A stretch of 64,000 nucleotides of DNA from Candidatus Magasanikbacteria bacterium CG10_big_fil_rev_8_21_14_0_10_36_32 (GCA_002778465.1 PFBV01000002.1:2312-66311); one strand, 5' to 3'. Numbered from the stretch's first letter, positions 47,222 to 53,241 are shown. Numbers and translations: made by a program. Notes: generated by a model from the letters alone, not told the origin.

Positions 47222-47273
47222 GGAGAGGTGGCTTCTGAGCTCCTGCCTGCCGGTAGGCAGGGGTCGAAAGCGG
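47222..47273 (+). pseudogene. duplicated tRNA-Ser 5' fragment (nt 1-12 and 18-29 of the tRNA) interrupted by a 20-bp palindrome
   Basis: GGAGAGGTGGCT and GGTCGAAAGCGG are identical to the intact tRNA-Ser at 47529. CCTGCCTGCCGGTAGGCAGG is inserted at the D-loop position. Confidence 0.55.
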
Positions 47274-47284
47274 TAATAAAATTT

Positions 47285-47527
47285 ATGTATTGCGTGTATT
47301 TTTTACAAAGTCTGAAAGATAAAGGTTTGTACATCGGAAAAACGAATAATATTAAACGTCGGTTATCTGAACACAACGCCGGTAAAGTTCAATCGACAAA
47401 AAGTAGAAAACCTTTTATTTTGTTGGGATTAGAAAAATACCAAACAGAAAAAGAATGTTTGGCGGCAGAATTAGAATGGAAAAAAGGATATAAACGCGAA
47501 CAATTAAAAGTTAGATATAGTCTATAA
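47285..47527 (+). CDS. small GIY-YIG nuclease-family protein (paralogue of 14865-15125)
   Basis: VYF...LYIGKT...RRLSEHNAGKV core. Shares the Y.L.S.KD..LY.G.T....R...HN.GKV..T..R.PF.L pattern with the other copy. Ends 1 nt before the tRNA-Ser. Confidence 0.65.
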   Translation: MYCVYFLQSLKDKGLYIGKTNNIKRRLSEHNAGKVQSTKSRKPFILLGLEKYQTEKECLAAELEWKKGYKREQLKVRYSL

Positions 47528-47528
47528 T

Positions 47529-47624
47529 GGAGAGGTGGCTGAGCTGGTCGAAAGCGGCACACTGCTAATGTGTTGTACGGCTCTCAAGGTCGTACCGAGG
47601 GTTCGAATCCCTCCCTCTCCGCCA
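47529..47624 (+). tRNA. tRNA-Ser (anticodon GCT) with long variable arm
   Basis: 7-bp acceptor GGAGAGG/CCTCTCC, anticodon loop CUGCUAA, T-arm GAGGGTTCGAATCCCTC, discriminator G plus encoded CCA. 96 nt. Confidence 0.85.
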
Positions 47625-47781
47625 GGACAATTTAGTATCGGATAGACCCGAGTAATGGTGAAGAATCCGTGATCCGACTGCCTAAAAAATTGTAATAAAA
47701 ACAACGATTTTCTGGTCGCTGTTTTTTTAATAAAAAATAGGTTCTTCAATAAGGTGAATATTTGAGTTATAATATAAGCAA

Positions 47782-47967
47782 ATGAACTGCCCCGATATGA
47801 AGAATAAACTTTTATACTGTATCCCAAAAATTCTAGCAATACTGCTGGGGATATTTTTTATCATTTTCGGTGAATTTGATGATAGTCCCGGAGCGCAACT
47901 ATTAGGTGTGGTATTAGTTGTGATCGGTATTGTTAGTATATTTAAAAACAATAAAAAATCTGCATGA
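47782..47967 (+). CDS. possible small membrane protein
   Basis: 61 aa with one strong TM helix. No clear Shine-Dalgarno sequence. Confidence 0.3.
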   Translation: MNCPDMKNKLLYCIPKILAILLGIFFIIFGEFDDSPGAQLLGVVLVVIGIVSIFKNNKKSA

Positions 47968-48003
47968 AATTTTTTAACCAAGATTTTATTTAACGGGGTA
48001 AAT

Positions 48004-50787: not shown

Positions 50788-50799
50788 ATTTGATAAAAT

Positions 50800-52797
50800 A
50801 TGGCCGAAGGTGCAATTAAAAAAATCGCGGAAAAAATACAGCTTATTCCAGCCAGGAAAAATAATTGGAAAACCGTCGTAATAATATTGGCGGTTGTTTT
50901 TGGTTTATTGGCGGTTGTGTTCGGCGTATCAGTCGTTTATTCCAAAACATACGTTGGAAAAGTTTATCCCGGAATTTATCTTGGGCATTATGATTTGTCA
51001 GGTTGGACAGCCGATGATGTAAAAAAGTTTGTTGATAGTTTTAGCCGACGTTTATCTCAGGAAGGATTGGTTTATATGTTTGAGCAAAACGGGCAATCGC
51101 AAAGAGTAGCGGTTAATCCGGCGCTTATTTCCAGCGAAGCGGCCATTGAAACGATTTTTTTAAGCAATAAAGAATTTGCCGGTGAAATTTTAAATATTGG
51201 CAGGGGAGAATCTTTTTGGTTTAAAAAAATGTGGCTGCCGTTGTGGTATAGAATAAAAACGATTCATTTGTCTTTGCCGGTGAAAATTGACCGTCAGAAT
51301 TTTCAAGGGATTATAGAAAACGCGTTAGAGGGATATGTGATTGAACCGCGTGACGCCAATATTCATTTGAGCAGTATTAATCCGTTGGCTTATGAGCTGA
51401 CTTTAGAACAATCAGGTGAAGTTTTTGATTATGAACAAATTATAGATGATACAGTTCAAAAATTATCTGAGCCGTCGCTGGAATCAATCGTTATTTCAAA
51501 ACGGTTGGTTATTCCATCGGTGACAAAAAAAGATTTAGCGGCAGCTGAAGAAAATATTTTAAGGGCGTTTAATTTTGGTCCGGCGATATTATCCCATACC
51601 GATACCGATGCCAAAGAAACTCAAGTTTGGTCGGTTGGTCCGGAATTATTGGTAAAATGGTTAAAACCTGTTTATGATTCCACCGGGAAAATTAAGTTGG
51701 AATTAAAAGAAAAAGAAGTGGGTCAATATTTGGAAAATTTGAGGGTGATTGTTGATCAGCCGGCTGAGGATGCTAAATTTTCAATGGAAAATGGCAAGGT
51801 GAGTGAATTTAAAAATGGTCATTCCGGACGCAGTTTGAATGTGGCTAAAACTTACGGTGAATTAAATAATTTATTTATCAAAATAAGCCAAGGAGAAAAT
51901 GTTGATAAAACAGTTATTAATTTAGCGGTTGACCAAACCGAACCGAAATTGAAATTATCCGATATTAATGATTATGGAATTACCGGAATATTCGGCGTTG
52001 GTACTTCAACTTTTTATGATAGTCATAATAACCGCATTAAAAATATTGCCAACGCAGTTGAACGGTTGAATGGTATAATTATCAAGCCGGGGGAAGAATT
52101 TTCTTCTATTAAATATGCCGGTTCATTTACTGAAGAAAATGGATTTTTACCGGAAGAAATAATCAAAGGCAATAAAATTATTAAAGAAGTCGGAGGAGGA
52201 ATGTGTCAGATTGGCACCACTTTGTTCAGAATGGCCATGAATTCCGGTATGCCGATTACAGAACGAACCAATCATTCTTTGGTGGTTGGTTATTATGCAG
52301 ATCCAATTAATGGAAATCCGGGTACGGACGCTACTTTGTATGAACCAATTTTGGATTTTAAATTTATGAATGATACCGGCGGTTATTTGTTGTTGCAAAC
52401 GGAAATTAATTATAAAAAACAAATGTTGATTTTTACTTTGTGGGGAACACCTGATGGTCGTTCTGGATTTTATAGCCGTCCGATAGTGAGTAAATGGATT
52501 CCAGCCGGTTTGCCGCAAGAAATAAAAACAACCACTTTAAAACCTGGTGAGACAAAATGTCAAAATGCATTTCGTGGCGCGAACGCCAGTTTTACATATA
52601 CTCGGTTTAATCAATCGGGTGAAAAAATTGAACGGGTATTTTCCAGTTATTACCGTCCGTTGCCAAAAATGTGTATGACTGGCATTAGTCCGAATGAATG
52701 CCCTGACGGAAAAACAACTTGTGATATTATTGTTAAAAATACAGCCACCAGTACGCCTTCGGCCACACCGAATTCTCAACCTCTTTTAGCTGACTAG
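50800..52797 (+). CDS. VanW-domain protein, membrane-anchored
   Basis: N-terminal TM helix. VanW core ...VGGGMCQIGTTLFRMAMNSGMPITERTNHS. Confidence 0.7.
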   Translation: MAEGAIKKIAEKIQLIPARKNNWKTVVIILAVVFGLLAVVFGVSVVYSKTYVGKVYPGIYLGHYDLSGWTADDVKKFVDSFSRRLSQEGLVYMFEQNGQSQRVAVNPALISSEAAIETIFLSNKEFAGEILNIGRGESFWFKKMWLPLWYRIKTIHLSLPVKIDRQNFQGIIENALEGYVIEPRDANIHLSSINPLAYELTLEQSGEVFDYEQIIDDTVQKLSEPSLESIVISKRLVIPSVTKKDLAAAEENILRAFNFGPAILSHTDTDAKETQVWSVGPELLVKWLKPVYDSTGKIKLELKEKEVGQYLENLRVIVDQPAEDAKFSMENGKVSEFKNGHSGRSLNVAKTYGELNNLFIKISQGENVDKTVINLAVDQTEPKLKLSDINDYGITGIFGVGTSTFYDSHNNRIKNIANAVERLNGIIIKPGEEFSSIKYAGSFTEENGFLPEEIIKGNKIIKEVGGGMCQIGTTLFRMAMNSGMPITERTNHSLVVGYYADPINGNPGTDATLYEPILDFKFMNDTGGYLLLQTEINYKKQMLIFTLWGTPDGRSGFYSRPIVSKWIPAGLPQEIKTTTLKPGETKCQNAFRGANASFTYTRFNQSGEKIERVFSSYYRPLPKMCMTGISPNECPDGKTTCDIIVKNTATSTPSATPNSQPLLAD

Positions 52798-52831
52798 CTG
52801 TGTTGGCAGGATAATTTAAACTAAAAAACAA

Positions 52832-52864
52832 ACCACCCCGCATTATTTTGCGGGGTGGTTTAAT
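52832..52864 (+). terminator. rho-independent terminator
   Basis: ACCACCCCGC-ATTATTTT-GCGGGGTGGT followed by a T-run. Confidence 0.65.
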
Positions 52865-53096
52865 TGATATTGGGGGAATGAACCCCCTAGAGTTCCGTAT
52901 TCAAGAAGATGTGTCAAAGGTGGAGATAAGCCGTGGCCTATGCAGACCGTTAACACATCCCCATGCTTGTGGTGAATACGGGAAATTGCTCGTTTTTTCT
53001 CGTTAAAAGGGGCAATTTCTCGTATTCTTACAGCATTGGATGTCCGTAGATTTTCAAACAACAAAGTATTGTATCACATCTAAATCATTTTGTCAA

Positions 53097-53211
53097 CCCC
53101 GTTAGAAAAGCCAATTGAAAAATTTTAGTAATCTTAGCCTAAAAATTGAATAATACCCTGTGGATAAACCTTTAGAAAAGCATCTTTTCGTGGAATAATT
53201 TTCTAACGGGG
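53097..53211. mobile_element. ORF-less miniature element bounded by inverted repeats CCCCGTTAGAAAA / TTTTCTAACGGGG (MITE-like relative of the GIY-YIG cassette repeats)
   Basis: The 13-bp arms share the 10-nt core CCCCGTTAGA with the repeats flanking the GIY-YIG gene at 14848/15109. The ~90-nt interior has no ORF. Confidence 0.45.
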
Positions 53212-53221
53212 TCAAGCCCGA

Positions 53222-53241
53222 CCTGCCTGCCGGCAGGCAGG
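53222..53241. repeat. perfect 20-bp palindrome CCTGCCTGCCGGCAGGCAGG
   Basis: One-mismatch copy at 47242-47261, inside the tRNA-Ser 5' fragment next to the second GIY-YIG gene. Confidence 0.55.

Follow-up and report, generated by a model that had tools for sequence, protein, structure and literature searches.

Short GC-rich extragenic palindromes, absence of a target duplication, a strand-specific target and clustering are hallmarks of repetitive extragenic palindromic (REP) and IS200/IS605-type elements. REPs and the bacterial interspersed mosaic elements (BIMEs), together with their REP-associated tyrosine transposase (RAYT; TnpA-REP), form a system of non-autonomous repeats that occur in clusters or nested within one another and are thought to move as single-stranded hairpins via one dedicated protein. 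IS200/IS605 elements, which move by 'peel and paste', depend on DNA hairpins, use a short strand-specific target and produce no target duplication. Here, we describe a 20-bp palindrome, CCTGCCTGCCGG(T/C)AGGCAGG, and the genes for minimal GIY-YIG nucleases with which it is associated, starting from two copies in a 64 000-nucleotide stretch of DNA from Candidatus Magasanikbacteria bacterium CG10_big_fil_rev_8_21_14_0_10_36_32 (GCA_002778465.1 PFBV01000002.1:2312-66311; hereafter the window). The 20-mer shares the features listed above with both systems. REPs, however, are genome-specific and imperfect, carry a GTAG head and have a Y1 HUH partner, whereas the 20-mer is perfect, is identical across phyla and phages and lacks GTAG; its only recurrent neighbour is a GIY-YIG nuclease, and its targets are the loops of other hairpins and pseudo-tRNAs. 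IS200/IS605 elements are hundreds of bases long, with distinct left and right hairpin ends and a Y1 transposase, whereas the unit described here is a single 20-nt hairpin, and no such transposase was seen in the palindrome loci.

Two further groups of small elements invite comparison. In the mitochondria of fungi and sponges, mobile GC clusters (as in yeast) and repetitive hairpin-forming elements are, like the 20-mer, short GC-rich palindromes that spread in AT-rich genomes; they insert into each other and near tRNA genes, coexist with GIY-YIG and LAGLIDADG genes and move by an unknown mechanism (PMC2800124). They differ in being organellar, longer and lineage-specific in sequence, with no demonstrated one-to-one partnership with a minimal GIY-YIG protein or a tRNA duplicate. 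Miniature inverted-repeat transposable elements (MITEs), such as the Rickettsia palindromic elements and the Correia elements, are also non-autonomous and can be inserted in frame, as the 20-mer is in two loci (L018 and L089; fetched loci are referred to by L numbers), and the lack of a stop codon in any frame of the 20-mer is a feature common to MITEs such as the Rickettsia elements. MITEs are 100–150 bp or more in length and have terminal inverted repeats and DDE-made target duplications, whereas the 20-mer is 20 bp long and makes none; a model of terminal inverted repeats plus duplication does not describe the dozens of exact +20-bp pairs reported below. The 20-mer is therefore rated as a non-autonomous palindromic repeat with a dedicated protein.

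The eukaryotic protein SLX1 is a structure-specific endonuclease that cuts flaps and stem-loops at junctions between single-stranded and double-stranded DNA, and GIY-YIG enzymes hydrolyse DNA without rejoining it. In a 2006 survey, the prokaryotic Slx1-like branch was described as the minimal form of the GIY-YIG domain, and one recent GIY-YIG insertion into a restriction subunit was reported (PMC1564403). These Slx1-like/UPF0213 proteins (YhbQ, EF2693 and BH0048) belong by sequence to the same family as the proteins described here and have the same minimal GIY-YIG domain; the occasional recent insertion into other genes (PMC1564403) also has a counterpart here, in L089. They have been described as vertically inherited repair proteins, for which tRNA-adjacent cassettes, duplicated tRNA pieces and the palindrome are unreported. 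In the tRNA gene cluster of phage T4, the SegB gene (PMC2330249) provides another parallel, with a GIY-YIG gene among or beside tRNA genes that spreads by break repair. Seg proteins, however, exceed 200 aa, carry DNA-binding modules and cut a defined sequence, whereas the proteins here are Slx1/UPF0213 catalytic domains of about 80 aa, and the cassettes here bring with them a partial duplication of the tRNA and hairpin plugs. Full-text literature searches, which extended to the sequence, turned up no account of the palindrome, the tRNA-duplication cassettes or the plugs.

The window encodes two GIY-YIG proteins, of 80 and 86 aa, which are 39% identical to each other and consist of the PF01541 catalytic domain only. 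The conserved residues of the family are Y5, Y16, G18, R26, H30, E50 and E62. The nearest solved structures are those of the bacterial UPF0213 proteins 1ywl (E = 4e-7) and 1zg2 and the SLX1 structure 7cq2 (E = 8e-4). With the conserved Tyr, Tyr, Arg and Glu and no other domain, the proteins belong to the Slx1-like/UPF0213 branch; a classical homing endonuclease of the I-TevI/Seg type is not indicated, as no DNA-binding domain is joined to the catalytic domain.

Both copies of the palindrome were found where a preliminary description of the window, made from its sequence alone, had placed them. Copy 1 (47242–47261; CCTGCCTGCCGGTAGGCAGG) has one central G·T mismatch and is inserted at nt 17/18, in the D loop, of a tRNA-Ser piece (site 1). 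Copy 2 (53222–53241; CCTGCCTGCCGGCAGGCAGG) is a perfect palindrome and stands as a solo copy in an intergenic nest of hairpins (site 2). The GC content, previously put at 60%, was computed as 75–80%, in a window with an overall GC content of 36.5%. There is no other copy in the 64 kb even with up to three mismatches, and none of 100 dinucleotide shuffles produced a match (0 expected). Chance and an assembly artefact were both ruled out: 0 matches are expected in the window, four independent assemblies of other samples contain the same sequence at 100% identity, and cultured isolates are among the matches elsewhere. A search for empty alleles of the two window sites gave identical contigs only. 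Ordinary terminators and one hairpin within a coding sequence aside, the two copies are the only compact GC-rich hairpins of the window, and neither is followed by the T run of an intrinsic terminator. An Rfam scan of the window returned only tRNA and 16S above threshold. At site 2 (52780–53480) nothing meaningful was returned even at E ≤ 10, and a known RNA family or riboswitch there was rejected on that basis.

Site 1 is a textbook cassette on tRNA-Ser. As previously described, copy 1 splits a 5′ piece of tRNA-Ser upstream of GIY-YIG gene number 2; the piece is a duplicate of part of tRNA-Ser(GCT). The order is tRNA nt 1–12 (47222–47233), TCT, nt 13–17 (47237–47241), the palindrome, nt 18–29 (47262–47273), 11 nt and the open reading frame (ORF). 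After removal of TCT and the palindrome, this pseudo-tRNA-Ser 5′ piece (nt 1–29; 47222–47273, + strand) is identical to tRNA-Ser at 29/29 positions. GIY-YIG number 2 (47285–47527, + strand; 80 aa) matches PF01541 with 65.8 bits (cutoff 22.6) and is a Slx1-like/UPF0213 protein with the catalytic domain only. The intact tRNA-Ser(GCT) (47529–47624, + strand; identified by ARAGORN, Rfam tRNA 60.2 bits) begins 1 nt past the stop codon of this gene. With the intact tRNA next door, copy 1 can be compared directly, so that the intact tRNA, 270 bp downstream, serves as an internal empty site; copy 1 differs from it by exactly +20 bp, with target bases neither duplicated nor lost. The 'related G-rich stretch' once thought to follow both copies is tRNA-Ser nt 18–29 at site 1 and a separate hairpin 10 nt downstream at site 2, and was dropped as a part of the element. 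Priming of insertion by a hairpin likewise found no support; what is inserted is the palindrome, which adds exactly 20 bp relative to empty sites. The 3-nt TCT insert (47234–47236) lies at nt 12/13 of the pseudo-tRNA. Because hairpin plugs that start with TCTA or TTTA occupy this exact tRNA position in L212, L228 and L237, TCT may, to judge from these alignments, be the footprint of a lost plug.

Precise insertion is also seen elsewhere. In a filled/empty comparison, the joined flanks of each copy were searched against all fetched loci. Dozens of filled and empty tRNA pairs were found that are identical across the junction (for example, 71/71 in L191, 51/51 in L169 and 63/64 in L211). Among orthologous phage contigs that are colinear over ∼4 kb at ∼90% identity, L138 and L155 are filled and L129 lacks exactly 20 bp. 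Paralogous empty copies of genome-specific hairpin repeats were found for L030, L057, L070, L120, L145/L034/L146 and L147/L158. Flank-pattern scans for empty sites of three phage copies returned self matches only; the all-against-all flank search yielded the empty sites that these scans had missed. Every filled/empty pair differs by +20 bp, without a target duplication. These comparisons show the 20-mer to be a precisely bounded 20-bp insertion.

The insertion sites have common structural features. Of 36 insertions mapped on ARAGORN cloverleaves, 18 lie at a stem–loop junction, 12 in a loop and six in a stem; junctions thus account for 50% versus 18% expected and stems for 17% versus 38% expected. 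Within tRNAs, insertion favours the D-loop 3′ edge (after A21), the sites just past A14/A15, the anticodon-loop edges and the T loop. Outside tRNAs, the flanks pair in stems of at least 7 bp at 11% of sites compared with 1.6% of controls, and in L110 the palindrome occupies the loop of an intrinsic terminator. At least seven copies are nested in another copy, mostly centrally (L020, L026, L032, L040, L059, L065 and L109). In loci oriented by their GIY-YIG gene, an A precedes the palindrome on the sense strand of the tRNA in 31/35 cases, whereas a T follows it in only 12/35, which indicates that the insertion step tells the strands apart. A preference of the 20-mer for loops and junctions, strand asymmetry and self-nesting are shown by these alignments.

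The distribution of the 20-mer was surveyed by scanning one genome per species (596 Gb) for the exact sequence, which is present in at least 120 genome stretches against a chance expectation of ∼1–2. The phyla among the matches listed are Patescibacteria, Bacteroidota, Omnitrophota, Planctomycetota, Proteobacteria, Nitrospirota and Chloroflexota, and the cultured isolates include Winogradskyella, Flagellimonas and Olivibacter. A further 47 stretches with the 20-mer come from viral contigs. Among annotated phages and plasmids from cultures, the matches listed cover only part of the query and are at chance level (six plasmid records that match part of the query at ≥99% were left out). The flanks of the copies are unrelated to one another. 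Only 13 of 129 copies (10%) lie in ORFs that read through them, versus 54% of random positions, and the palindrome contains a stop codon in no frame. In L018 (5955) the palindrome alone is in frame, as NLPAGRQA, in an FtsK-like ORF, and in L089 (3861–4145) the palindrome and a GIY-YIG domain are in frame inside a 714-aa hsdS-like ORF. Copy numbers are two in the 64-kb window and at least six in one 29.5-kb viral contig, and L165 (3916–4124) carries a tandem array of at least ten copies of a variant, CATGCCTACCGGCAGGCAGG, with a 21-bp period. In two viral contigs (L151, 2239–2330; L123, ∼8616) the variable loop of a full-length phage tRNA-Met contains the palindrome, and ARAGORN still calls the gene, as a 92-nt tRNA; the palindrome may be tolerated there as a class-II-like extra arm.

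Other short hairpin families are also common to unrelated genomes, namely TCCGCCA(A/G)..GGCGGA, CCCGCCCG..CGGGCGGG, GTCATTGCGAGGAGCG adjoining CAGCGACGAAGCAA and CTCCCCTCTCCTTGGGAGAGGG adjoining GTTGGGGGTGAGG. They serve either as plugs or as hosts of the 20-mer, and are found in L014, L022, L055, L190, L199, L203, L221 and L228, in L070/L206 and in L145/L034/L146.

That the palindrome belongs with GIY-YIG genes, as first proposed for the window, is strongly supported by two sets of loci. The first comprises 80 metagenome loci that were fetched solely by GIY-YIG protein similarity and that hold 91 GIY-YIG genes. A palindrome (up to three mismatches, mostly exact) lies within 300 bp of 42 of these genes (46%, a figure that holds only for the subfamily of the retrieval alignment), and a tRNA lies within 80 bp of 63 (69%), usually directly downstream. 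Palindrome density is 0.86 per kb within 150 bp of the GIY-YIG genes versus 0.013 per kb in the rest of those loci, which is a 65-fold local enrichment. Conversely, in the loci selected by palindrome, six of eight GIY-YIG ORFs lie within 175 bp of a palindrome, and in an unbiased clustering of ORFs from 167 palindrome loci GIY-YIG is the sole recognisable family that recurs right at the palindrome. The exact palindrome is found upstream of 27 proteins whose mutual identity is only 53%.

In a typical cassette, a duplicate of the tRNA from nt 1 to about nt 27–49 lies upstream of the gene, and all adjacent palindromes are inside this duplicate. In the mirror arrangement an intact tRNA and the gene are followed by a 3′ or full-length pseudo-tRNA plugged in the T or D loop; L235 contains three plugs. 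Cassettes that seem to lack the palindrome have a 19-nt form, nested forms or other GC-rich hairpins at the same positions (for example, CCCGCCCG...CGGGCGGG and TCCGCCAAAGGCGGA). In all, 60 of 64 alignable pseudo-tRNA pieces are plugged (94%, with some multi-plug alignments overfitted), and no plug was seen in the working tRNA among the cassettes examined. In 17 of 27 clean cassettes, the duplication begins no more than 1 nt from tRNA nt 1, a boundary that corresponds to a flap-like junction at the base of the acceptor stem, and the cassette ORF often extends into the tRNA. No GIY-YIG cassette was seen inserted into a 20-mer palindrome, the cassette junctions being elsewhere. Loci with no apparent tRNA are tandem arrays of cassettes or ends of contigs, or have a tRNA that is interrupted after the anticodon. 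Two tRNA genes adjacent to GIY-YIG genes break off after the anticodon in this way (L198, ∼2235–2290; L229, ∼2730–2790) and are missed by ARAGORN. Group I introns have been reported for Patescibacteria (PMC13011429), and by analogy these two genes may hold such introns. Overall, the counts from both sets of loci show that the two-way association of the palindrome with the GIY-YIG/tRNA cassette is very strong and that plugging of the pseudo-tRNA is near-universal.

We give roughly even chances to the explanation that the 20-mer is a non-autonomous mobile hairpin 'plug' that would be moved into foldable DNA by the Slx1-like GIY-YIG nuclease. The enzyme step, in which the nuclease would move the hairpin, we infer by analogy. 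The GIY-YIG protein would, like SLX1, cut folded single-stranded DNA at junctions between single-stranded and double-stranded segments, and either the template of the lagging strand or the strand displaced when a tRNA gene is transcribed could supply such folded DNA. The 20-nt hairpin, perhaps once excised at its own stem base elsewhere, would be ligated into the resulting nicks. The nuclease would act mainly close to its own gene. In pseudo-tRNA pieces, plugs would do no harm or be useful and would persist for that reason, and those in a working tRNA would be lost by selection; a possible benefit is that the plug disables the pseudo-tRNA and breaks a direct repeat that could delete the nuclease gene. 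The flap-like boundary at tRNA nt 1 fits the same enzyme.

Several points weigh against this explanation. The retrieval alignment for the GIY-YIG loci consisted of three palindrome-adjacent genes, and the loci obtained are partly non-independent. About 94% of the scanned palindrome copies have no GIY-YIG gene in their 8-kb locus, and among the palindrome-rich viral contigs (at least six copies in 29.5 kb) GIY-YIG gave one match in the 428 kb fetched. The preliminary description had named many scattered copies, unlinked to GIY-YIG genes or inverted repeats, as what would make the palindrome a generic REP-like element; copies away from GIY-YIG genes do predominate, but the enrichment around these genes holds. 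The 20-mer is both a dispersed repeat and a GIY-YIG partner, since the 65-fold enrichment stands, yet most scanned copies are scattered over phyla and phages. The inner junction of the cassettes shows no loop preference (13 in a stem, seven in a loop and seven at a junction), so that the idea of the GIY-YIG cassettes following the loop rule of the palindrome is unsupported there. As GIY-YIG enzymes do not rejoin the DNA that they cut, a ligase is needed. Furthermore, a purely structure-specific nuclease leaves the constancy of the exact sequence across phyla unexplained.

Among the alternatives, the palindrome might be a cis-acting site that is bound or cut by a dimeric nuclease (an operator, immunity or processing site), with the solo copies decayed or orphaned; we consider this unlikely. 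Such a site would suit the perfect two-fold symmetry, the exactness of the palindrome beside proteins of only 53% identity and a fairly constant position in which the palindrome ends 15–50 nt before the start codon. The palindrome also occupies the conserved D-loop/T-loop box of the pseudo-tRNA and would thereby destroy a tRNA-gene target site. Disruption confers no immunity, however, because the working tRNA retains intact boxes, and the 80-aa catalytic domain has no separate DNA-binding domain with which to recognise a site. Unrelated hairpins hold the same positions in other cassettes, so the palindrome sequence is not required. In addition, mirror copies lie downstream of the gene, several can be present per pseudo-tRNA and most copies are far from cassettes, in the loops of non-tRNA hairpins.

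It is quite unlikely that the mobile entity is instead a homing unit {palindrome – tRNA nt 18–29 – GIY-YIG – tRNA nt 1–17} which break repair would copy into a tRNA gene whose D loop has been cut, in which case the palindrome would mark the donor break site and solo copies would be remnants. Insertion of this unit between nt 17 and 18 reproduces the architecture of the window exactly; L178, L204 and L216 contain tandem arrays of pseudo-tRNA, palindrome and gene, and the position within one tRNA type recurs between different contigs, for example after nt 14 of tRNA-Leu(gag) in L195, L210, L216 and L226. Only ∼6% of the scanned copies have tRNA-like flanks, however, and copies in terminators, repeats, phages and coding sequences are left unexplained, as are self-nesting and the presence of two or three plugs in one pseudo-tRNA. 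Because the homing unit fails for non-tRNA, nested and multiple copies, independent mobility of the palindrome is needed anyway.

A third alternative is a REP-like repeat moved by an unlinked enzyme (RAYT/Y1 HUH), with the link to GIY-YIG genes reflecting a shared taste for neutral hairpin-rich DNA. The 20-nt palindrome has the size and mostly extragenic location of a REP (10% of copies in through-reading ORFs versus 54% of random positions), produces no target duplication, has a strand-specific target base and forms clusters and nests. Nevertheless, we regard this reading as very unlikely. A conserved GTAG head is absent, the flanks being unrelated except for the preferred A at −1, and the identity across phyla is unlike that of genome-specific REPs. 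No transposase-like family, including the Y1 type, recurs in the 167 palindrome loci (a scope of loci rather than of whole genomes), where GIY-YIG is the only recurrent recognisable neighbour. The 65-fold enrichment and the plugging of 94% of pseudo-tRNA pieces are hard to obtain from neutrality alone.

Finally, an RNA element, either a 5′-untranslated-region hairpin that stabilises or processes a GIY-YIG/tRNA co-transcript or one that blocks competition of the pseudo-tRNA with the tRNA, is extremely improbable. In its favour, the hairpin is stable (−13.9 kcal/mol as RNA, −8 as DNA) and usually lies in the leader of the gene, on a transcript whose end would be the RNase P site of the tRNA; plugs also strike the D and T loops, on which the tRNA elbow depends. 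An RNA hairpin requires no fixed sequence, however, the central G8A/C13T variant is found in both orientations relative to the gene (∼5 versus 6, and thus no strand bias of the central T variant that could be taken as evidence of an RNA hairpin), mirror copies lie downstream of the gene and solo copies stand in either orientation in unrelated contexts. An RNA hairpin may account for the retention of plugs, but not for their arrival.

Site 2 is a solo copy of the 20-mer; next to it lies a second type of palindrome, the host of both GIY-YIG number 1 and a miniature element. As had been noted, copy 2 starts 10 nt past CTAACGGGG (end 53211), the right arm of this 'miniature element' (53097–53211). 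The arms of the element (53097–53109, CCCCGTTAGAAAA; 53199–53211, TTTTCTAACGGGG) enclose an 89-nt AT-rich central insert, in which similarity to GIY-YIG genes was not detected. Copy 2 itself lies within the loop of a CCCGA(C)...GTCGGG hairpin, and the 80-nt region around it is a nest of hairpins (DNA fold z = −4.3). GIY-YIG number 1 (14865–15125, + strand; 86 aa, PF01541 61.3 bits) lies at the centre of a palindrome of the second type, with a left arm, CACCCCGTTAGAGATA, at 14846–14861 and a right arm, TATCTCTAACGGGGT, at 15109–15123. The C-terminal residues LSLTG and the stop codon of this gene are encoded by the right arm. Across 14846–15125 the gene is exactly central in the palindrome formed by CCCCGTTAGAGATA and TATCTCTAACGGGG. 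The miniature element's arms and the flanking repeats of GIY-YIG number 1 are halves of one second palindrome type, so the gene and the 89-nt AT-rich segment are each central in a copy of it. The second palindrome is uninterrupted, as a 28-bp sequence composed of CCCCGTTAGAAAAT and ATTTTCTAACGGGG, in L055 (7392–7419), and L055 and the miniature element share the flank GGGG(T)CAAGC.CGA.

Other features of the window lie beside these sites. The ∼570 bp between two convergent terminators that include site 2 (52862–53434) have no ORF or Rfam match and consist largely of nested hairpins. A putative tRNA-Ser 3′ remnant at 53281–53289 was rejected, a 9-nt match being too weak for a claim. An AT-rich palindrome, TTTAAATACCCATTTAAA(C/T)GGGTATTTAAA, occurs twice in the window (47127–47158 and 61888–61919), in each case directly after an intrinsic terminator (47104–47126 and 61846–61866, respectively) and ahead of the transcription unit that follows; a promoter or operator is one possible identity, another mobile palindrome a second. 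At 60553–60707, tandem 57-nt and 12-nt repeats lie within a coding sequence and encode a region rich in Pro, Val, Glu and Thr.

A broader proposal is that these loci represent mobile DNA of a class not recognised before, for which a single protein, a minimal Slx1-like GIY-YIG nuclease, would suffice. The nuclease would cut folded DNA where single and double strands meet, insert its gene at tRNA genes while duplicating part of the tRNA in compensation, and carry a 20-nt hairpin to loops throughout the genome. We advance this tentatively, as a possibility that is somewhat more likely to be wrong than right. If it is true, the 20-nt hairpin, identical across bacterial phyla and phages, would be the smallest transposable element known, and would spread by a structural rule (loops and junctions) and not by a sequence rule. 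The minimal Slx1-like GIY-YIG protein would then join the short list of enzymes that drive bacterial DNA mobility. Such a structural targeting rule, together with so small a cargo, could also be attractive for use as a tool. In Patescibacteria, Bacteroidota and further lineages that are mostly uncultured, the finding accounts for many of the 'tRNA fragments' and unusual GC-rich hairpins, and it flags a source of tRNA mis-annotation and of in-frame gene insertions (FtsK-like and hsdS-like). It also offers a testable function for the widespread, still uncharacterised UPF0213/YhbQ proteins.

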